A stretch of 37,306 bases of DNA from Vermamoeba vermiformis. Its lineage: Eukaryota. Positions 5,101 to 37,306 of the stretch are shown piece by piece. A program made the position numbers and the translations under genes. Where the stretch lies: the NCBI GenBank assembly GCA_045837725.1, contig JBEWZL010000124.1, positions 620,001 through 657,306 of the forward strand. Reading direction: 5' to 3'. The notes under the pieces are model-generated. The model saw nothing but the letters and a program-made list of their open reading frames with translations, did not search any database and was not told where the DNA came from. Each line of letters opens with the position of its first letter. Position 1 is the stretch's first letter.

Positions 5101-6232
5101 AGGTGAGTACATTCCTTCTCAGCTGTATCAAGCGACGTCTAATTGTTCCTTTAGCGAGGAAATTCTCAATTTGTACGCGAAGATATGCGCGGACATTGCG
5201 TTCAGCGTTGACATTGAGACGAATGACACGATGTTGCAGAAGTCAATCAAAGCCTTCAAACGGTTGAGGAACACTGACAAGATCAAAGAGCTCGTCAAAG
5301 AGCTGAAGAGCAGCAACAAGAAAGTGAAGGAGTCAATTCTGAGGAGTTGTTTCGACTTCATTTTGTCCAAGCCCAGCATCAAGAATCTCAATTTTGTGGC
5401 CGACTTCGGCGATTGCTTAGAGCACTTGAAGCTGGACACGTTCTGTTTCTTGGACGACGACATCTTCCACCGCTTGTCATTGAAGTGCAAACGAATCGCT
5501 TCATTGGTCTTACCTTACTGCGGCACTGTTACAGGTATTGAATTGATTGTACATGTTCGAGCACGCGAGGCTAACGAACTTCCGTTTTCAGACAATGGAT
5601 TGGCCTACATTGTCGACGCGTGTTCTTCGACTCTAAGAGATATCGTGCTCGATGGCATCAACACTATAACAGGTATATAGTCCCTCTACCTTGCATCTAG
5701 AGCGTGACTAATGTTGAGTGCAGATGACGCGATCATTAACATCACGCGCAAATGTTCCAACTTGCGCAGTCTCAGCGTGATGGCGTGTGACAGCTTGACC
5801 AACAACGCGTTCAGATACATTAGACAGCTGCGCGTGTTGACCAGTTTGGCAGTCAGTTGGACTGAGGTCAACGCTGCCGAGTGGTTGTCAAATCCAAATC
5901 TGCGACTGCTGTTCGTGCGTAGCTGCAAGATCGACAACCAGGGCGTGATCCACATCGTCAACAATTGCCCCTTATTGAAGTCATTTGACATTGGAAACTG
6001 TCCCAACATTGGAGACGTGGCTTCGCTCTTGCAATATTTTGTGCGCAATTGCAAGGGTCTGAAGTTGCTGAATATGGACGGACTCACTATCAATGTCGAC
6101 GATCGCGTGTTCTTCATGCTGAAATGGTTGCAAGGAAAGAAACCAACACTGATTATCAGCGGCAATCATACAACGGATCGAGATATTACGCGGTTGACTG
6201 AATGTGGCTTCACTTTCCAAGAGCATACGTAA
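2109..6232 (+). CDS. Clu-domain protein with inserted UBR-box zinc finger and C-terminal leucine-rich repeats, multi-exon
   Basis: Joined exons give RDWNAEYQ, GGEKYIYNGILFKFA, PLMTLIDFLGFRLTAVSLLPI, VYGSSDGG, DIEGHLGKDGRFYLID, RLLRPEFV and HSGGVNLRYL (Clu/CLU-central motifs). 4473-4680 encodes C..QYSYECYTCG...LCFVCARKCHK..GH...FFCDC (UBR-box type). 5400-6150 encodes FBXL/AMN1-like LRRs (CSNLRSLSVMAC, NCPLLKSFDIGNCPNI). Confidence 0.8.
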
Positions 6233-13532: not shown

Positions 13533-14804
13533 ATGGCAGCAATGACTCATAGATTTATTATTGCTTCATTAGTGCTTGTTTTGGCTATTTTAACTCTCCC
13601 GAGCCGCCAGCACGGATTTGACACTTCGGGATTGGAGCGCCTTTCTTTCAGCCCAAATGGTACTATTCTCCTGCCCAACGGCGAAGAGTTTCGCGCAGGA
13701 GGATGGAATTGGGGTCACTGGACGTTGACTCAGTATGGAGACGCGGAACTCAACGTTGCTGAAGGCGCGAATATTGTGCGAATTATCCCTCGCTGGTGGG
13801 GCCTCTACAGCGACCCGACAATCGATGCCTACGCTGACGGCGCTGAAGGACATTTTAATACTACAAACATTGACCGCTTGGACAAATTAATAGCTTCTGC
13901 GGTTCAAGCCGGATTGTGGATCAACTTGGCTTTAGACTCCAACTGCGGTCAAAATGGTGCTCAAGATCCAGATACAGAGGTTTATTGCACGGTGGATGGC
14001 CAGCCAGCGCAGAACTTTTTCAACAATCTCGGCATGCGCACCAAATTCAAAGAGGCGTGGACCTACCTTGTCAACCGTTACAAGAACACCACGCGCATCG
14101 CATGGTATGAAATCATGCCTGAACCTAGTCCCCCCGGCTACACTGACGCGGACGTGAAGAGTTTTTACGCCGATATGATTCCTGTATTGCGAGCAGCGGA
14201 CCCGATCACGCCAATTCTCATCGGTCCAAATAACGCTTATTTTGCGAACAAAATCGCCACCGTTTACGATGCCAGTTTCACGAACGTAGTCTACACGGCC
14301 GATTTCCTCGCTCCTGTGGTGCTCAACACGACCAAGATGCAATCAAAAGTTGACTTTTTGACCTCGCTCAGGAGCACGGCAGGTGTGCCAGTGTTCGTCC
14401 AACAATTTGGCATTACAATCGATCAAGACCCTACTGGCGAGCTACTCGATGCAGGAATGCAGTTGTTGATCGACAATCATATTGGCTTTACTGGTTGGGA
14501 GTACCGTGGTCCTACATACCCCGAGTACAGCGTGTGGTACCAGAACAAGACGGATTGGGTGCTCAAAGAACTGCCGTACGATATCTACAAGAGCAAATTC
14601 GCACAATGGAACTCTCCGTTAGGCACAAACTCCGCGCCAAGCAGTGCACCTTCATCGCTTGCACCTAGCACTGCTCCGAGCACTTCACCCTCGGAGACAC
14701 CGAGTGCGGCCGTTGCTCCATCTCAATCTACCAAGTCTAGCGCTCATCGTTACCTTCCTTCAGTATTGTTAGCTTCGATTGTAGTCGTTGGTCTATTAAA
14801 CTAA
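13533..14804 (+). CDS. GH5 (cellulase-family) TIM-barrel protein, intronless, signal peptide, Ser/Pro/Thr linker, hydrophobic GPI-type tail; catalytic residues atypical
   Basis: 423-aa ORF with GANIVRI, LDKLIASAVQAGLWINL, AWTYLVNRYKN, IAWYEIMPEP, LRAADPITPILIG, PVFVQQFG and IGFTGWEY in GH5 strand order. The C-terminal PS/PT-rich linker is followed by LLASIVVVGLLN*. Confidence 0.82.
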   Translation: MAAMTHRFIIASLVLVLAILTLPSRQHGFDTSGLERLSFSPNGTILLPNGEEFRAGGWNWGHWTLTQYGDAELNVAEGANIVRIIPRWWGLYSDPTIDAYADGAEGHFNTTNIDRLDKLIASAVQAGLWINLALDSNCGQNGAQDPDTEVYCTVDGQPAQNFFNNLGMRTKFKEAWTYLVNRYKNTTRIAWYEIMPEPSPPGYTDADVKSFYADMIPVLRAADPITPILIGPNNAYFANKIATVYDASFTNVVYTADFLAPVVLNTTKMQSKVDFLTSLRSTAGVPVFVQQFGITIDQDPTGELLDAGMQLLIDNHIGFTGWEYRGPTYPEYSVWYQNKTDWVLKELPYDIYKSKFAQWNSPLGTNSAPSSAPSSLAPSTAPSTSPSETPSAAVAPSQSTKSSAHRYLPSVLLASIVVVGLLN

Positions 14805-26352: not shown

Positions 26353-26865
26353 AATAAACAACATTTCTTTTTGTTTATTGGGGTACCCAGCAAACAAGAA
26401 ATCAAACTGCGCGACTTTAAATTTGTTTGCTTGTGCCCATTTTAGGAATTGACTACTTGGTCTCGATGCAGTGCAGTGCATTGTGAAGAGGGAATCATTC
26501 CTTCTTGTATTATTTGACGAACCTGCTCGTGATACTTGTGTCCAATAATTCCGCAATGTTTGAAGTAATTTTCGATTGATTGTTCTGAGAGCATTTCTCC
26601 ACCATTGACATCTTATTTTGTGTTGAAGAGTTGGAGCTTTATTTTGTATAAGCATTAAATTCACTAAGTTTTTATTGATTGTCTACAATTTCAAAATAGC
26701 TCGTGTGAGATCCAGACACGTTCTAAAAAATAGCGAAGTCTTGATCCGTCAGTCTGAAATGCATCCAGCAAATTCCTGCTGAATTTTATATATACTTGGG
26801 GTTGACGGACGTTTGGGTTATGGAAAAAATACTAAGTCGAATGGCCAACACATGAAATATCCTCT

Positions 26866-27180
26866 GGACAACACCAGAGGACGTTACCTCCAAGGCGACA
26901 ACATTGGAGGTCGTTACCTTCAAGGTGAAGACATTTAAAGTCAGGCAGGTTGTTACCTTCAAGGCGACAACGTCAGAGGTCGTTACCCTCAAGGCGACAA
27001 CGTCCATCGTCAGGGAGTTTGTTACCTTCAAGGCGACAACGTGAGAGGTCGTTACCCTCAAGTCGACGACATCCAAAGTCAGGGAGGTCGTTACCTTCAA
27101 GGTGACAACGTCAGAGGTTGTTACCTTCAAGGCGACAACGTCAGAGGTCGTTACCCTCAAGGCGACAATGTCCAAAGTCA
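26866..27180. repeat. Tandem satellite of 30-bp units (some 42-bp variants) with an imperfect palindromic core
   Basis: About 9 copies of GAGGTCGTTACC(T/C)TCAAGGCGACAACGTCA, some with an extra TCCAAAGTCAGG. The core GTTGTTACCTT-C-AAGG(T/C)GACAAC is self-complementary. Confidence 0.9.
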
Positions 27181-27204
27181 GGTTAGGGTTTAGGGTTAGG
27201 GTTA
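27181..27204 (+). repeat. Short interstitial telomeric tract (TTAGGG/TTTAGGG)
   Basis: GGTTAGGGTTTAGGGTTAGGGTTA directly after the satellite. The G-rich strand is +, so it points rightwards as a chromosome end would. Confidence 0.8.
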
Positions 27205-29106
27205 TACGATGGGCATGAAACGCTCAGGATTGATGCGAAAACCATGCCCAAAAAATCGTGGTAAAAAATCGAAGCAAAATAGCCAAAAAAGAACATGAAC
27301 ATTGATTTTTGAAGAATTTACGATAGGAACAGATAGATCAAACAGAGATCTATCTATTGAAGGTAGGGTCGCTATATTACTCGATGAGGTAAGGTAGTTA
27401 TCGCTATAATCCCACGCGGGCACAACCATGCCCAAGATCGCGAATTTTGCCTGATTAATTTTGATTGATTTAATTTTGATAAATTTCGTTACTAGGTGCC
27501 AACTAACAATGCGTGGAGTGGTTGGTTTTTTTTTCGAAAGCGTTGGTGGTCACAGAACGTCGCGCAGATCTGACAACTCGGATTGGGTCAGCTTTGGAGA
27601 AATTAATGGCAATAAATGGCTTAATAACGCGTAAGTACAAGTAATTAATTGATATTTTATTTTTGCTCGCGGTTCTAAGTCCGATCTAGAAGTTCGAACG
27701 GATTTAAATCCGCGAGAAGTGCTTAATCAGCAATAATTATAGTCAATAACGATTTGCAATAATATAATAACAATCCCTATTCAATATCACGTCATTTGTT
27801 CGTTATTTACGGTCGCTGTCATTGATCGAAATTCTCGATCTTGACTGTCATTTTTTTATCGCGACCAGACGAACGACCACAAAGGTCTTTTATTTATTTT
27901 TTGATTATTTAGATAATAACAACACGCGCCCAACGATATTCAGCGTCGTTGCATAATAGAATGAAAGAAGAAAAGGAGAAAGGAGAATGAAATTTCATTG
28001 TGATGAAGGAATCAATGTTAGTTAACTGGTATGTGAATGCTTTAAGATGATAGAAGCATGAAGGGTATCATGCTTCATACAATCAGATCGGTCGCGGAGT
28101 TATTAGACGAATGACCGAAGACAAATGAACGGTAAGTAGAAGCATACTATTATTTTAATATCATTAAATTATCTAATTTGGTTTATTTAAGTCTCACAAC
28201 TTGGCGATGACTGATCGATCTTCTCGCGGAATAAAGTTCGTTCACACGGGTATTGAGCGAAGGTAAACACATCAATAATATTTCACTGATGGTTATTAAC
28301 GTGTTATATTATTAGATTTAATTAAAACGATCTTTTTATGAAGTCGAGGAACGAGATCTCTCGATCCGCGAAACTAAGTGGAGGGGTCGATGGAATAGTA
28401 AGTGGTCCCTTAATTATATATTAATTAGTTAATTTAAGCTAATTTGTTAGTACAAGGGCCGATGAAAATTTAATGAACCGCTGACGCGCGATCTGGTGTC
28501 TCTATCCGTCATCGTCCTCACGAGTAACGCTATTAAGGTTTAAACAATCACCGTAAGTGCACTAAGGGGAATGTTAGTCGAAACGTACTAATAGTTTTTT
28601 TTACAGTTTCAGCGTGTCCTTTCTGATTTTACGAATTCGGTGCACGCATGATCTGACAGCCCTCAAATCTCGGAGTTATACGAAGATGGTAGGACGTAAG
28701 AGCATATATTGGTTTAACGATACAATTACTAATATTCTTTACTAATAGACGGCATGAAATAATCCAAATAATTGAACCGCAACTGAGCTCCAACATTCGC
28801 AATCTTTCCGTGACTGGCTGGTTTCCGTTATGCAAGTACTTTCGTACTATTTAATATATATTTGATATTAACCCTTTATTCAGGCTAGGTAAAAGCACGA
28901 GAAAGGATATCGATCTTCACTCCTACTTGATAGCGTAAGTTCGCTGCATCAACGAGTGTTAATAGGTTGATACTAATAAATTATTAATTCAGAGAGTAAA
29001 AGAAATCTTATTATTTTTGCCGCAGTAAGTACGTAAATGTCTTTATAATATATTTACTAACACGAGATAATTAGAGAAGGGTTTAGCGTTGAATTCCGCG
29101 TTACAG
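27205..29106 (+). ncRNA. Putative spliced, hairpin-rich non-coding transcript or non-autonomous element (copy 1)
   Basis: Eight intron-like segments of 50-60 nt (28132-28191, 28263-28315, 28398-28450, 28553-28606, ~28689-28748, GC-AG 28832-28883, 28935-28992, 29025-29074) with donor, branch-like and acceptor signals. The joined exons give no long ORF. Many stem-loops; paralogous to 35200-36650. Confidence 0.5.
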
Positions 29107-30855
29107 TCACGAGTTTGACAGGCACTCCATATACAGGCCACTCCATCTCGTTCTCTACACATGACAGCGGCAAGCAAAGGTTATTTTCCTTTGGATGTAC
29201 TTCACCGATCGAGTCACTCACTCTTCGCTGCAGAAAGAAGTCCCCGAGTACATGCCGCCCACCTTGTCGCAGCACCAGTGGCGAGTGCTGAGATGGAGTA
29301 TGAAATGAGTTCTCCTGACAGCGATCAGCAACCAGATTACAGCGAGCCATTCATTCAGCTCCGCGAGAAGTCAAAGGTAAGTTCGGATCTAGATTGAGTG
29401 TCGTTTGTGCTCACCAGTGCGGTAAATTAGAGGAGCCTATTGAATGCACAGCCCCGTGGAGAAGAAGCGCAAGTAGGATCTGATCCAAGAGTCGCCAGAG
29501 AGGGCAGGCTTCGATCACGTAGTCCCAGGTTCGCTGGATGTGTCGTGCGCGCCAAAGGGCTACTTGCAGTACAGCGACATACGCCTCAAGACTAACACCG
29601 AGGACATTATGGACGCCCTCGATATTGTGACTCGTCTGCAAGGCAGGTGCTACCAGGGGAAAGACGAGCTGGTGGCAAATGAACTCGGAGGATGCAAAGT
29701 GATTGGTCTGACCACATCAAGTGCGTCGTGTGCTGCCTGAAGTGAGGACTGCAATGGCTATCTCTTGGTTGATTACGCAGACCTGGGGCCGATCTTGGTG
29801 GAGGGTCTGAAGCAACACTTGAAGAACTAGTTCTCGAGAGCGACAAGAGCGAGATGAAGGAACAGATCAGCAAACTGCACAGCAACATTAAGTCTTGAAG
29901 CACAAGAGCGACAGCGAGACGCGCAAGATGAGTCACGAGCTGGAACCGCTCAAGTTCAGCAACAACAACATCTTGGACTCTTCTTGCACCAGTCACCTCC
30001 TATCGACACACTCCCAGCGCACCTTTCGCGCTCAGTCACGAACACGAACTCATGCTCGCAGCACTGCAGAACATTTTTTGGCTACGGCGTGACAGTCACG
30101 TGCTTGGCAGGCTACGGCGATCACGTGATCGATCTGTACGATGCCGCGGTGGACAATCTGCAACACAGTCACCTGTTGCACGTGCTGCACATGGACAAAA
30201 AGTACCGCAGTCAGTTCGATCCCAACATCACCTGGAAGCCGACCAACTTCATAGAAGAGATGATCTTGTTCGCGCTGCTGCTCAAGAACTTGCACGAGGA
30301 CGCAGATCTGCTACTTTGTAACCCCCAACGCCCTGAAGTGATCTACTAAATGCCCAAGAACTTCTTCAAGTACCTCTTGCACCACAAGCTGCATCAAGTG
30401 CTATTTGGACATGACGGACTCGCAGCACTCACCAACTTCAGCACCTTCTTTGTCTACGGGCTTGCCACTATCGCTCATGTCTCCCTGGGGCTACAAGTTC
30501 TATCGTGCTTGCGTGCAGTTGCGCCAAGCCTTCGAAGTGCACCGCACCATCACAGCGTGTCCTAAAGTCTATCGCGTGGGACTCCTCCACACCTGCACCG
30601 CTCTTGCAGCACACGGTGTTCGACACGGACACACATACCCTGCTGCAAAAACTGTGCGTGTTTGAACAACAAGTGCGTTGCGTGCCCATCCAGTACAAAG
30701 AGGCATTTACTACTGCCTACAGTGCATTCAAGTATTGGAAGCCGAGCAACAGTTGCGAGGAGGCTATTCAAAAGGCACTTAAGAACGACCTCACGTTCCG
30801 GAACGTCAACATAGCTGTTAATATCAACTTGACGAAGTCGAATCCGGAGATCTAG
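29107..30855 (+). pseudogene. Pseudogene of a peptidase S74 (intramolecular chaperone autocleavage, MYRF/MrfA-ICA-like) domain protein
   Basis: KGYLQYSDIRLKTNTEDIMDALDIVTRLQGRCY...KVIGL, then after frameshifts RRVLPEV...VDYADL..ILVEGLKQ. The SDxRLK motif and following helices typify S74/ICA. Multiple frameshifts and in-frame stops; GC-richer than the flanks. Confidence 0.78.
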
Positions 30856-32039: not shown

Positions 32040-32696
32040 TAGGCATGACCAATAGGTTACAGGGAGGGCCATAGGCAGAAGCGTGACCAGCAGGTCACAG
32101 GGGTAGAGACTAGGTGTGACCAGCTGGTCACTAGGACATGGAGCGTGACCAGAGGGTCATAGGCGCAGAGACTGAGTCACAGGGGCCATAGACAGAAGTG
32201 TGACCAGCTGGTCACAGGAGAAAGAGCGTGATCGGCTGGTCACAGGGAAGAGCGTGACCAGCTGGTTGCGGGACAGAGAACGTGACCAGCTGGGACAGAG
32301 AGCGTGGCTGGTCACAAGGGGCAGACAGTGTGACCAGCTGGGACAGAGAGCGTGACCAGCTGGTCACAGGAGAAAGAGTGTGACCAGCTGGTCGTGGACA
32401 GAGAGCGTGACCGGCTGGTCACAAGGGGCAGGCAGTGTGATCAGCTGGTTGCGGACAGAGAGCGTGACCGGCTGGTTGCGGGACAGAGAGTGTGACCGGC
32501 TGGTCACAGGGAAAGAGCGTGACCGGCTGGTCACAGGGAGACAGGGAGAGCGTGTGACCGGCTGGTCACAGGGAGAGAGCGTGACCGGCTGGTCACAGGC
32601 AAGAGAGCGTGACCGGCTGGTCACAGGCAAGAGAGTGTGACCAGCTGGTCACAGGGAGAGCACGTGACCGGCTGCTGGTCACAGGCAAGAGCGCGA
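32040..32696. repeat. Tandem satellite (~27-30 bp) with palindromic core GTGACC(A/G)GCTGGTCAC, left part
   Basis: Roughly 20 copies of GAGAGCGTGACCGGCTGGTCACAGG. TGTGACCAGCTGGTCACA is a perfect 18-bp palindrome. Confidence 0.92.
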
Positions 32697-33951
32697 CACT
32701 ACAATTTCTAAAGGGGCAAATCACACCCGTGATTCTCATCTCTCATCTCGTCGGATCTCATGTGATGAAAAATGGCCACACCGTGATTTTTATCTCGCCG
32801 TGAACAAATCAACAACGCACGCATTTTTAATAGGTCACTTATTAATACAAAAGAAAATGATAATAATGAACAGCATAAGTGGTGTAAATAAATATTTATT
32901 AAACAAATACCTTCAAGAGTTGTTCTGGCAAAGTTAACTACGGACTTTAGTTCGTTCAAATATTGGTCATCAGTGGCACGGAGCTTCGGCATTAAGTGGC
33001 ACTAAATATCTCTATAAATATATTAGTTAAATGCATCTTGGCTTGTGTTACAATTAATTGTAAAAATTACATACGTGGATGAGTTAAAACTTTGATCCAC
33101 TGCCAGAATGAAATTTCACTCGTTAAGTCGCCTGCAGCACAGCGACTTAACTGCAAAGAGATTTCTTGCTGGTCGCGTATCTGGAAGACTAATTAGTTTG
33201 AGTATTTATATATTAATATGCACTCTTAATACTATAATTACCTTGATTAAATGCTCCTCAATACATTAAAAGTATAATCCGAAACGGATTAAATCCTAAA
33301 TTAATTTTTAAAAATTAATATTTAATGCTATTACTTATGTAATGATATTATTATTAATGTACTAAATATTTTGTGGCATTTAACCCAAAAACCTACCCAC
33401 ATCTGAGATGTTCCATCCGAATTACAAGTGAAGATAATTTGGCATTACGGAAGTGCTGTAGTTATCTATTTATATTGTAAGCACTAGCTAATTGTTAACA
33501 ATTACTCACCGTTTGTGTTAAACATACGTGCCACAGCAGCGATTTGATATTTTGTTTTCGTTTTCATTTTTTAACTTCTTCCTCAAAATATTAGCATGCT
33601 ACATTCGCTGTCGCTGTTCCTGCAGGCGTGCAATTGCGACATTTTATGAGGCTGTCTTGTCTGCGATCACTAGCAACACCGTTTTACTTCACCCCCCATG
33701 GCTTTGCTCTCTTTGACCTTCCACGGTCGAATGGAAGGCTCAACCTTTGAACGGTAGACTTCGTGGTGCTTTTGCTTTGTCATTCGTATGTACCTTTCAT
33801 TAAATTGTCATTCTCTGCATAGAACCAGATGCTTATTAATATCACTAGTGACAAAAATCACACCGTGGAGCTAAATCTCGCGTGATCTCCCACTGAGATC
33901 TCGGTGAGAGGCAAATATCGCCGAGATTGGCAGTTGTTAGTTTTTGTAGTG
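32697..33951. mobile_element. Non-autonomous CACTA/EnSpm (CMC superfamily)-type DNA transposon, 1255 bp
   Basis: Left end CACTACAATTTCTAA; right end TTAGTTTTTGTAGTG (reverse complement CACTACAAAAACTAA). Subterminal CACACCGTG/ATCTCG repeats at both ends. It interrupts one satellite unit with a 2-bp GA duplication (gagcgcGA|...|GAccggtcaca). The interior holds only decayed minus-strand exon/intron fragments. Confidence 0.82.
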
Positions 33952-34030
33952 GACCGGTCACAGGGAGAGCGCGTGACCGGCCGGTCACAGACAGAGAGTG
34001 TGACTGGTCACAGGGAGAGCATGACTCCTG
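33952..34030. repeat. Right-hand continuation of the GTGACC(A/G)GCTGGTCAC satellite
   Basis: GACCGGTCACAGGGAGAGCGCGTGACCGGCCGGTCACAGACAGAGAGTGTGACTGGTCACAGG resumes immediately after the CACTA right end. Confidence 0.88.
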
Positions 34031-34760
34031 GACACTGGGCAGGTGAGTGTTAGATCGAGTTAAAAAAAGCACACCGAACCTGACTTACCTTAGGCAGACC
34101 AATATAAGCCCATGGGACGTGTGGTGTTTATAAAGAGGCCAGCTGCAGCAGTGCGTGCACTGGCATCAAAGTGATGAGGTTGTGTTGGACTTGACGTGTC
34201 ATGAAACGCTGCACACAACGGGTCAGATTCGTGATCGAGGTTAAAATCTACCTGACTTACCTCACGCAGGTTGCTCACTATCCAGCAGTCCTGTTGAAGC
34301 TCGCAGAACGTGTGGCACTTATAAGGAGGCAAGCTACACTACACAAACGATAAAAATTAGATGCCGCGCATCTAAAGTTCCAGATTTAAAAATTCTTTTA
34401 CTTACCAAATGTCAGGTACTTGTTGGCTAGCACCCTATAAGCATGTGTCTTTGCATTGTGCCGCAGAGACATTTTGAATTAAGTCCTACGCAGCAGTGAG
34501 CGCGGAGAACAACAACGCGTGACCACGATCTGATGAAAATCTAAATTAAATATTATTAAGATAAATTCTGCTCCGAGTTATTAATGAGGGAAAACTCACC
34601 GCAGTGCACTACGCACTGTACGAGCATAAGTTAGTGGAGCAGACAGCCGATCAGCTCCCGGAACCTTGGTGTTGTTAATATTAATTCAAAACGCAACACA
34701 GCTGCTTTCGTTGGACCAAGAAAATAATAAAATTAATTCCACGACCATTGTGGTGTGGTG
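34031..34760 (-). other. Minus-strand series of short exon-like blocks with splice donors, partly internally duplicated, no ORF
   Basis: Donor-like GTAAGT/GTGAGT on the minus strand at ~34088, ~34259, ~34405 and ~34599. Block GATCGAG..TTAAAA..ACCTGACTTACCT is duplicated (34052-34091, 34233-34262). Confidence 0.35.
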
Positions 34761-34930
34761 CTCGTAGTTAGTGGGTTAGTTATGAAAGCAGTGCGGAGCT
34801 AAAATTGTCAGCCGTGCCAGGATTTATCCCAGCACAGAACAATTTTTTGGCAGCACGTGCAGTCGACACACGTCGGTTTTCTAAATCAGGAAGTGACCGT
34901 TACGCAGATTAAGCATTGTTTAAATACTTG

Positions 34931-35350
34931 GACAGATCGACCACTAGGGTTATTTATTTTTACAGCTTAAAGTAACGCGCCGCGGCACCAGAGCCGTTTC
35001 AGCGCGAGATATTTCGGATCTGAGCTGATGCGAAAATGGCACACGGGCTATTTCGCATCAACAATTCAACAGATCGACCACAAGGGTCGATATATTTATT
35101 ATTTAATGATTAATAACAGCAGATAGTGCCGCGCCACGGTCAACACGGCCGTTCAGCGCGAGTTATTTCGAAGATTGACAGTAGCGAATCTCGGATTCGC
35201 AACAGATCGGCCACAAGGGTCGATTTGTTTATTTAGATGGCTTATTTTTTATTCATACACACGCGCCAAACGACAATCAGCGTCGTTCCAGCGCGGCTTT
35301 AAGATCGCGATCAAAACGCGATCAAATCTCGGTGCAGTGACCGAGATAAT
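34931..35350 (+). repeat. Three diverged ~135-bp structured tandem units
   Basis: Units start ACAGATCG(A/G)CCAC(A/T)AGGGT at 34932, 35069 and 35202. Each has an AT-rich linker, then CGCGC-[inner hairpin]-CAGCGCG, then a further hairpin. Confidence 0.75.
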
Positions 35351-36530
35351 TTAAGGTAATAATTTTTTTAATATCCTTTCACCATGTATATTATTTTAAC
35401 ATCGTAAATTCAATTTCTAAATTTTGGAACCAAAATCAATCAGATCCGGATCGAGCTTCGTGCTCGGATTTTATCTGGATTTTTAACTTATATTTATCAA
35501 ATTATACTAAATACAATATTCTAACGCGTAATTTTTTTATTTAGATTATTGTTACGGTTTTTTAGCGCGATCGAAAGTTCCAGTCACTTTCGATGCGCGA
35601 GATCCAGACCACCAATGGTCGTTTCACGGTATACTGGCTTTTTCCGTTCGTGTCCCGCTGTAGGGATGGTCGCCACTGCTCGGTGACGGATTCGGTAACT
35701 TGATGCCAAGATCGGATGCGTTGGACGCATCGAAATATTCCGTAAGTTATTTTTCAATAATAAAAACATTCAATTAGACGCAGGGAACGCGTCATTTTAA
35801 AATTTAAAATTACTCTTAAATAATTACGAGATACGAATCGAGCTTCGTGCTCGTTTAAAATATAAATTACTGTTTATTTTATTATTAACATAATATATTA
35901 ATCATTATTTAATAGTAATTTGAACATCAGAACTTTGGTGCGAGTTTTAGATCGAGCGCGAAACCGATCTCTCGATTCCCAATAATGAAGCAACCGTAAG
36001 TAGTTTAAATCGTTTATTTTATTATTGTTTAATAGTCTAAAGCGTTTTATTTAGGCGGTACAAGTTACTCAACACGGATCTAGATCGTCGACTTCGCGCG
36101 TTGAAAAATCCTGGTTAAAGTCAAAGATATCGAAGGTAAGCACATAATCACGATTAACAAGCCAAGTACTAACGCGTTATATTAATAGGAATACTCACAC
36201 GAACGATCGAGCCCGATGAAGCTGATCGAGAAGTACCGGGCTCGATCCGCTAAATTTTACTTGGCGGGACCATTAAACGCATAAGAGTAAGTTATTTACA
36301 TTTTATAACACATCGAATAATTAATCTAATATCTTTTTATTGTTTAGGTGGCCCGACGCGTTGATCCAGGACTTGGCGATCTTGGATGTCGAACAAAGTA
36401 CGGATGCGGCTAACAGGTAAGTTAATTTACACTTTTCCAATTAATATTACCAATTATTAACTCCTTAATATCACTAGTGTTAATGCGTGATTGAGTTCAT
36501 CGTAGATCCCCGCGGGGCCCAAATAAAAAT
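35351..36530 (+). ncRNA. Putative spliced, hairpin-rich non-coding transcript (copy 2)
   Basis: Introns at 35742-35777, 35996-36054, 36136-36188, 36287-36347 and 36417-36477; AATAAA at 36522. Exons carry perfect stems (e.g. GATCGAGCCCG...CGGGCTCGATC, 36205-36247). Intron positions and flanks match copy 1. Confidence 0.5.
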
Positions 36531-36674
36531 GAATGAAATGATGAGGATAACAGAATGAAATTTCATTGTTAATTCTTAATCAATGAATGTTAATTGGTAA
36601 ACGAATGCTTTAAATGAACGGAAGAATGAAGGATGTCATTCTTCATCATTGGTACAGTAATCAATGTAAAGTAA

Positions 36675-37306
36675 CAGCAACACGTGCTTTAAATCCGGGA
36701 TAGTCGCGCTAACGCGCGTAAATCCCGTCATTTTCGAGTAAAAAAGAGCATAAAGAACGCGATTTGGATCTAGTCGCGCTCCGCGCGCGTTCTTTCTGGG
36801 GATCAATCCCCGCAGGGGGTAAGTTAAGAAGAAAATCAGTGAATTATTTGATGATGATGATGATGATCATCATTACGATGGTATCCATGCTGGTTCTCTG
36901 GTACACGTACGCTTTAAGCTTGGGATAATCGCGCTAACGCGCGTAAATCCCATCATTTTCACGCGTAAAGAAGAGCATAAAGAATGCTGTTTGAATCTAA
37001 TTGCGCTCCGCGCACGTTCTTGCTGGGGATCAATCCCCGCAGGGGGGTAGATTTGAAAAATTGATGAAAATTGAAATAATTTGATTGTGATGATGATGAT
37101 GATGATGACAATGATGGTGATGATGACATCATTATTGCAATGGTATCCATGTTGGTTCTCTGGTAAACGAATGCTTTAAGTACGGGATAGTCGCGCTGAC
37201 GCGCGTAAATCCCCTCTTTTTACGCTTAAAAAAGAGCAAAAAGAACGTCATTTGGATCTAATAGCGCTCCGCGCGCGCTCTTTTCCGGGGATCAATCCCC
37301 GCAGGG
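36675..37306 (+). repeat. Tandem structured repeat, period 225-262 bp, at least 2.6 copies, runs off the window
   Basis: GGGAT starts at 36697, 36922 and 37184. Each unit reads GCTTTAA - GGGATA(G/A)TCGCGCT(A/G)ACGCGCGTAAATCCC - AAAGAAC...TTCTT stem - GGGGATCAATCCCCGCAGGG - variable (TGA)n - ATGGTATCCATG(C/T)TGGTTCTCTGGTA. Confidence 0.9.

Follow-up and report, generated by a model that had tools for sequence, protein, structure and literature searches.

What kind of genetic element keeps its hairpins while it changes their letters? The question is raised by a short tandem array near the end of the window, i.e. the whole stretch of 37,306 nucleotides of Vermamoeba vermiformis DNA that was analysed. 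The window is eukaryotic nuclear DNA with short introns, and its genes encode a Ca-ATPase-like protein, a GH5 cellulase, a patatin-like lipase and an otubain. Its G+C content per kb is between 0.36 and 0.53, compatible with the 41.7% published for the Vermamoeba genome (PMC10980511). The GH5 cellulase gene (13533-14804) is intron-less, and its product has a tail rich in Ser and Pro and ends hydrophobically. Its nearest relatives share 79% identity (from a Logan assembly) and 78% identity (a Vermamoeba vermiformis transcriptome protein in EukProt). The initial annotation had taken the array for a set of structured RNAs with a constant processing or protein-binding handle and variable parts. We put the probability at about 40% that its units are structured modules, repeated within the 5' portion of a non-coding transcript from the plus strand.

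The array (34931-35355) comprises three head-to-tail units of about 135 nt which have in common a 20-nt motif and a CGCGCC...CAGCGCG stem (Table 1). The sequence CAGATCGNCCACNAGGGT occurs exactly three times in the window, at 34933, 35070 and 35203. With up to three mismatches four matches were found (the fourth at 5927, with three mismatches) compared to 0.16 expected, and none of 100 shuffles reached four. Similarly, CGCGCC-N10-30-CAGCGCG is present three times compared to 0.01 expected (0 of 100 shuffles). A repeat finder reported a 34-nt block in three copies, spaced by 137 and 133 nt, with 65% and 91% identity to the middle copy. The ~135-nt array itself was missed by Tandem Repeats Finder because the likeness from unit to unit is only about 70%. 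The single ORF of at least 40 amino acids in the array is a 59-aa frame starting with TTG (35175-35354). Because this is the sole ORF and periods of 137 and 133 nt are indivisible by three, the array is not coding, and a protein-coding tandem repeat was rejected. All hairpins quoted in the initial annotation were located in the sequence at the positions it had given. One of them, GATCGCG/CGCGATC, can also be read as an 11-nt direct repeat. The supposedly constant hairpin which punctuates the units turned out to be constant in part: copies 2 and 3 form a 7-bp stem, copy 1 lacks the 3' arm and has GGGTTATT in place of GGGTCGAT.

Table 1. Positions in the window of the array units, of related modules and of the adjoining predicted transcription units.
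Feature	Position	Strand	Description
Unit 1	34931-35067	+	motif copy 34932-34950 (without 3' arm), A/T spacer, hp1 34976-35006, hairpin 35026-35060 (10-bp perfect stem)
Unit 2	35068-35200	+	motif hairpin 35073-35091 (ATCGACC/GGTCGAT), A/T spacer, hp1 35130-35160, hairpin 35184-35200
Unit 3	35201-35355	+	motif hairpin 35206-35224 (one G-T pair), A/T spacer, hp1 35262-35295, hairpins 35303-35323 and 35326-35347
Outlying module	27866-27958	+	motif GACCACAAAGGTC, A/T spacer, hp1 without closing GCGCG arm
Inverted module	34686-34762	-	ACCACAATGGTCG, A/T spacer, hp1-like CCAACGA..TGTGTTG; 0 of 300 shuffles
Candidate decayed fourth unit	35554-35621	+	17-nt match to 3' half of hp1 (35554-35570, 76%), 9-bp hairpin 35570-35594, motif variant 35607-35620
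Relative of second hairpin of unit 1 with 3' flank	32750-32815	+	stem kept with other letters (GATGAAAA/TTTTTATC), loop similar
Multi-exon non-coding stretch beside inverted module	33800-34760	-	3 donors on minus strand, 0 on plus strand
Downstream multi-exon non-coding stretch	35356-36477	+	5 GTAAG[TC] donors on plus strand, 0 on minus strand
Predicted long introns	35356-35544, 35742-35915	+	splice-signal prediction
Predicted short introns	35996-36042, 36136-36188, 36287-36347, 36417-36477	+	47-61 nt

The array is far more structured than its composition would predict. On the plus strand units 1, 2 and 3 folded better than dinucleotide shuffles with z-scores of -3.5, -3.1 and -4.4; on the minus strand the effect was weaker in each unit (-2.1, -1.2 and -3.2). 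The complete array reached z = -8.4 (plus) and -6.0 (minus), and on neither strand did any of 100 shuffles fold as well. Perfect hairpins, counted as stems with 7 or more bp and three or more G/C pairs, numbered five in the 425-nt array stretch compared to a shuffle mean of 0.18, and none of 200 shuffles reached five. In the first 26 kb of the window, which are mostly coding, 11 such hairpins were present versus 13.0 expected, i.e. the chance level. The unit-specific stems are perfect Watson-Crick palindromes of 7-10 bp devoid of G-U pairs, which fits palindromes at the level of DNA.

Pairing in hp1, the first hairpin after the spacer, is of a different make-up. Across an alignment of five copies 85% of 34 cells were paired compared to 24-56% with slid partners. 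Two of the seven pairs had changed on both sides, and on the module strand four G-U cells were seen versus a single A-C cell, the latter at the outermost position. A control for covariation with these five sequences was less clear-cut: the score was reached by 31 of 500 shuffles and the number of two-sided pairs by 150 of 500. Such statistics are weak because the family is known from five copies in one 37-kb window. Unit 3 and the copy at 27866-27958 have the hp1 loop AWTCAGC in common; the closing arm of the outer stem is absent in the latter copy, which counts against our preferred reading. The structural half of the earlier inference was borne out by folding far beyond shuffled controls and by an hp1 pairing which is kept in five copies through two-sided changes and G-U pairs.

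The entity that recurs is not the whole unit. It consists of the motif, an A/T-rich spacer and hp1, and was seen in five clear modules. In full, a module contains a 20-nt constant motif with the core ACCACAAGGGTCG, 25-42 nt of A/T-rich spacer, hp1, and one or two unit-specific perfect hairpins. The motif precedes hp1 in five of five modules at distances of 36, 53, 52, 49 and 40 nt, and the spacers contain 76-87% A+T. In the outlying module, 27871-27953 matches unit 3 at 75% identity across 87 nt (E = 7e-7 in a search of the window), with a local alignment score of 57 versus a null maximum of 25 (0 of 300 shuffles). The inverted module and unit 1 are arranged head to head about 180 nt apart, at the starts of a minus and a plus strand multi-exon stretch, respectively. 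A decayed fourth unit may lie at 35554-35621; this weak candidate is suggested by three collinear short matches, and the shuffle-tested local alignment of the segment to the modules was not significant. Its motif variant reads GACCACCAATGGTC / GACCACCAATGGTCG. A covariance model built from the five hp1 rows detected no sixth copy in the window: its five hits were the rows used to build it, and the next best reached 13.5 bits (E = 0.31). A metagenome scan for motif plus hp1 returned one locus (L001), a GC-rich, bacterial coding-like stretch and a chance match. What the initial annotation called a constant handle is more aptly seen as a module head of motif, A/T spacer and hp1, which recurs outside of the array. 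Instead of serving as a handle in RNA it could be an element of a promoter.

The surroundings of the modules point to splicing. The regions from about 27.2 to 29.07 kb and from about 32.7 kb to the window end are without long ORFs and rich in splice signals on one strand. For GTAAG[TC] the plus:minus ratio is 6:0 in 27500-29075, 5:0 in 35356-36640 and 0:3 in 33800-34760; in the array this word is absent. Units of 47-61 nt of the type GTAAGN...CTAA[CT]...YAG recur in the non-coding stretches, and the same 47-61-nt GTAAGT...ACTAAC/T...AG introns interrupt the coding genes of the window. The predicted spliced exons of the non-coding loci have stops in every frame. From their sequence, 27500-29075, 33800-34760 and 35356-36640 look like spliced non-coding RNAs, or like a long, uORF-laden leader before an ORF near 29160. 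Because the outlying module is located between predicted donors at 27631 and 28132, it is probably exonic. All six motif-like copies are oriented with the local splice signals. The 3' end of unit 3 coincides with a candidate splice donor, AAG/GTAATA at 35355/35356; GTAATA is weaker than the usual GTAAGT, and this counts against our preferred reading. Three RNA runs labelled with the same species yielded 4, 0 and 2 reads against 33000-36640, 95-99% alike and mostly as partial fits. Given these values the runs may stem from a diverged strain.

How could these elements be connected? A module of about 135 nt would have been triplicated locally, possibly with a fourth unit which has since decayed. 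It would belong to a small family of hairpin elements residing in spliced non-coding transcription units of this amoebozoan. The three units would constitute the first exon or the leader of a plus strand non-coding RNA which continues into short exons from 35545 onwards. The reiterated hairpins with U-rich linkers between them would then provide repeated protein-binding sites, that is, a scaffold-type RNA domain, and the constant motif would be either a part of this RNA or the promoter element at which it starts. The Xist A-repeat is built similarly from GC-rich hairpin cores which are separated by U-rich spacers with a period of about 50 nt. Common to both are GC-rich hairpin cores and U-rich linkers towards the 5' end of a (here predicted) spliced non-coding transcript, and a likely reiterated binding of protein. 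The differences are a period of about 135 instead of about 50 nt, the unit-specific part in each unit, the amoebal host and a transcript which here is predicted from sequence. The elements fit no described family and may constitute a lineage-specific structured non-coding repeat or a family of ncRNA genes. Our literature search retrieved no study of ncRNAs in tubulinean amoebae, the group which includes Vermamoeba; the module family would offer a first handle on ncRNA genes or promoters of these organisms.

The hairpins at the 3' side of the units had been called entirely different from each other. Their letters do differ, yet some kinship is visible. ATC or GAT opens four of the array's five perfect stems, and relatives exist at 32750-32815 and 33898-33927. 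The former segment aligns with unit 1 with a local score of 33 (null maximum 25, 0 of 300 shuffles). Between the unit 1 hairpin and its counterpart at 32764-32794 the stem has changed on both sides, and the loop ATGGC.CACAC is kept between the hairpins at 35036 and 32772. At 33898-33927 the arms ATCTCGG/CCGAGAT of the last hairpin of unit 3 are found again. Two further segments, 27960-28078 and 36528-36646, are related over 122 nt (75% alike, E = 3e-14), and here a 9-bp hairpin displays a two-sided change, GAAGCATGA/TCATGCTTC (28053-28076) versus GAAGAATGA/TCATTCTTC (36621-36644), by one exchange of C-G for A-T. The first of these segments directly follows the outlying module on its 3' side, the second is 1.2 kb downstream of unit 3; the palindrome AATGAAATTTCATT is located within them. 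Perfect hairpins which start with ATC or GAT account for 9 of 18 in the non-coding loci (27200-29075 and 32700-37306) and for 0 of 12 in the remaining window. In these loci GATC is enriched 3-4 times, and the observed/expected ratio of CpG is 1.7-2.0 compared to 1.1-1.2 in coding DNA, with a range of 1.5-2.0 for 27200-29075 and 32700-37306.

These properties allow for a reading without RNA. The array could be a palindromic repeat of DNA, either resembling a satellite or left by a small mobile element that has decayed, which is transcribed incidentally if at all and has no RNA function; the pairing of stems would be maintained by template switching or by gene conversion between the arms of quasi-palindromes. 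We regard this as rather unlikely. A DNA-level origin is favoured because the unit-specific stems of 7-10 bp are perfect and free of G-U, because the minus strand folds nearly as well as the plus strand and both far beyond shuffles, and because the ATC/GAT start together with the GATC enrichment suggests a common origin or a common mechanism. In addition, modules recur in shuffled combinations across about 10 kb. Conserved hairpins of a similar type are also found in the predicted long introns (35442-35466 and 35829-35853), therefore hairpins do not track exons. Palindrome-rich tandem repeats are close by (32083-32637 and 33973; 36680-37306). When G-T and A-C mismatches were counted over all hairpins of the loci, the numbers were 9 versus 5 in the plus strand loci and 4 versus 2, in the wrong direction, in the minus strand locus, i.e. 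there was no strand signal. Several observations run counter to such an origin. The mismatches in hp1 favour G-U over A-C on the module strand (4 versus 1), the plus strand has the better z-score in three of three units, the loops of related hairpins are conserved, and all motif copies are co-oriented with the splice signals. The last point amounts to about three independent events, or about 1 in 8 by chance. Together with the two-sided changes in hp1 these features favour a role as RNA, or at least a strand-specific one. Moreover, an informal look around the units revealed no target-site duplications or terminal inverted repeats.

Bacterial REP/BIME clusters and the small, hairpin-bearing mobile elements of eukaryotes are the nearest known counterparts of a DNA-level repeat. 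There, too, short GC-rich palindromes with common stem anchors cluster in non-coding DNA and copies are shuffled between loci. In contrast, the present locus is eukaryotic nuclear DNA with spliceosomal introns, and its copies are few, local and all oriented with the predicted transcription. The window has no associated transposase gene. If the elements do operate at the level of DNA, the perfect palindromes anchored by ATC/GAT would show small palindromes being maintained in a eukaryote, which is unusual.

Alternatively, each unit might be a separate small-RNA gene. The motif would be an upstream promoter element of the snRNA type (PSE, USE or DUSE-like), the spacer would contain a TATA-like box, and an RNA of about 90-110 nt would start near hp1 and end with a 3' hairpin domain which is free to vary, analogous to the Class I RNAs of dictyostelids. 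We consider this unlikely. It is equally doubtful that the units represent a new class of small structured RNAs in tubulinean amoebae, namely tandem genes, each with its own DUSE/PSE-like element some 50 nt upstream of a conserved 5' hairpin and with a freely diversifying, ATC/GAT-anchored 3' hairpin. Such a class would combine a constant handle with a variable cassette and would match the dictyostelid Class I RNAs in a lineage beyond Dictyostelia. The arrangement of the modules is compatible with this: the motif is followed by hp1 in all five and is not necessarily preceded by hp1, the spacers are 76-87% A+T, and the head-to-head pair 34754(-)/34940(+) resembles a divergent promoter. Runs of 6-7 T follow 115 nt (unit 2) and 101 nt (unit 3) after the start of hp1. 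However, no run of at least four T is found for 269 nt in unit 1 and for 228 nt in the copy at 27866-27958. Pol III genes were rejected because a T run is missing after unit 1. The motif-hp1 spacing varies between 36 and 53 nt, the motif variant at 35607 is inside a predicted exon, and the modules precede a spliced multi-exon structure, which is absent from snRNA-type genes.

The comparison with dictyostelids is instructive in this respect, and the closest named relative of a window protein (GH5) is from Vermamoeba, likewise an amoebozoan. DUSE is [AT]CCCA[AT]AA, located about 60-63 nt upstream of dictyostelid ncRNA genes, with two Cs only in some species (PMC3188802, PMC7919456). The motif core ACCACAA is close to DUSE, yet this likeness of a 7-mer with one mismatch is a lead only, and neither DUSE nor its spacing was expected by the authors to hold outside Dictyostelia (PMC7919456). 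Class I RNAs are described there as molecules of 42-65 nt which have a terminal stem and in which an 11-nt motif is conserved (CCUUACAGCAA-like; PMC7919456, PMC3188802). They are reported as restricted to Dictyostelia; they, too, keep their stem structure without keeping its sequence, have a variable region and cluster (PMC7919456). The likeness to our modules comprises the amoebozoan host, a motif with a CCA[N]AA core which precedes a small structured element by some tens of nt, a stem structure maintained without its sequence, a variable region thereafter and clusters formed by duplication. The terminal stem, that 11-nt motif as well as CM-type features of Class I RNAs are missing here, the spacing is 36-53 instead of about 60-63 nt, and spliced exons follow the modules. 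Expression of Class I RNAs has been demonstrated, whereas that of the modules is predicted. The 8-mer CTTACAGC, taken from PMC3188802, was not seen when the sequence of the units was read. Assignment to the dictyostelid Class I RNAs was rejected, since no terminal stem joins the unit ends and CTTACAGC was not seen; a DUSE-like ACCACAA is present at 36-53 nt. If the motif should be a promoter element of the snRNA type, ncRNA genes of these amoebae could be predicted across whole genomes, as was done with DUSE in Dictyostelium.

Could the array contain a processed small RNA of a known class? This would comprise snoRNAs with 13-nt mini-exons of the form AG/ATCGACCACAAGG/GT, spliced-leader genes, ribozyme repeats or a miRNA cluster, and we consider it highly improbable. 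Some local features are suggestive. The constant 13 nt are flanked by AG and GT in all three copies, unit 2 reads hairpin-ACAGTA-hairpin-ACA, and in its order of stem, single-stranded A/U-rich linker and stem the array is similar to Sm-class RNAs in their 3' domain. In the spliced-leader form of this reading an exon ending in ...ACAAGG/GT would be followed by a hairpin, the Sm-like AUAUUUCGG and a second hairpin. The checks largely argued against it. With Rfam no match reached the gathering score in the whole window, snRNA genes included. Among the four matches with E of at most 10 in 33000-37306 (best E = 2.8) neither a snoRNA nor a ribozyme mapped to the array; the sole one inside the array was to a bacterial antitoxin model with 21 bits versus a threshold of 60. 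A tRNA search of the window was negative.

In box C/D snoRNAs a terminal stem brings together the C box (RUGAUGA), close to the 5' end, and the D box (CUGA), close to the 3' end. On the plus strand we found one C-like word, in a spacer, and no C..D pairs at 45-130 nt; the minus strand had a single pair with 0 terminal base pairs. H/ACA snoRNAs have the order hairpin-ANANNA-hairpin-ACA, and each hairpin has a pocket about 14-16 nt from the box. This box order exists in one of three units (unit 2). The stems of the array are continuous, 7-10 bp with loops of 3-15 nt, and have no pocket, and an Rfam match is absent. Self-cleaving ribozymes (hammerhead, twister, HDV-like) had no Rfam match at the gathering score and were not among the four matches with E of at most 10 in 33000-37306. 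The hairpin stems of miRNA precursors are about 20 bp or longer; with a longest stem of 10 bp and others of 4-9 bp those of the array are too short. Mini-exons of 13 nt (ATCGACCACAAGG) were rejected as well: their donors would be GTCGAT and GTTATT and an ACTAAC branch site is absent, unlike the regular introns of the window. Spliced-leader genes have an invariant leader exon that ends at a GT donor and an Sm site flanked by two hairpins, and the leader is carried at the 5' ends of many mRNAs. A GT follows the motif in six of six copies, but the would-be exon differs strongly between copies and Rfam has no spliced-leader match. This variation and the ordinary introns downstream of the modules make a spliced leader unlikely. 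The linker AGAUAUUUCGG is presumably not a canonical Sm site. In the literature ATCGACCACAAGG was met only in an unrelated occurrence, and GACCACAAGGGTC was not found in the papers retrieved. Regarding its layout, the locus is reminiscent of snoRNA host genes and polycistronic snoRNA clusters, in which a multi-exon non-coding gene repeats its exon-intron units and small structured elements stand in tandem. It differs in that C/D or H/ACA boxes and an Rfam match are missing, that most introns are 47-61 nt long, too short for a snoRNA, and that the hairpins are largely outside the predicted short introns.

Several further repeats were noted in the window. The two hairpin-forming blocks in the predicted long introns (35442-35466 and 35829-35853) are 25 nt long (..ATCGAGCTTCGTGCTCG) and 92% alike. 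Each is located about 87 nt past a predicted donor, and the predicted introns around them are unusually long, 189 and 174 nt, respectively. A tandem array with a period of about 28 nt (32076-32695 and 33954-34007) is based on the perfect 16-nt palindrome GTGACC[AG]GCTGGTCAC, of which 10 exact copies and 16 copies with up to two mismatches are present at 32083-32637 and 33973; its GACC/GGTC half-sites resemble the constant motif. At 36680-37306 about three copies of a tandem unit of 220-270 nt, 78-88% alike, continue past the window end. This repeat is rich in hairpins (GGGATA..TATCCC-type, GGGGAT/ATCCCC) and has (TGA)n runs between the copies. A 69-nt tandem repeat (26867-27168, 3.7 copies, 84% matches) is part of a minus strand open frame of 145 amino acids (26786-27223), and at 27181-27204 an internal run of about four TTAGGG-like, telomere-type repeats is present.
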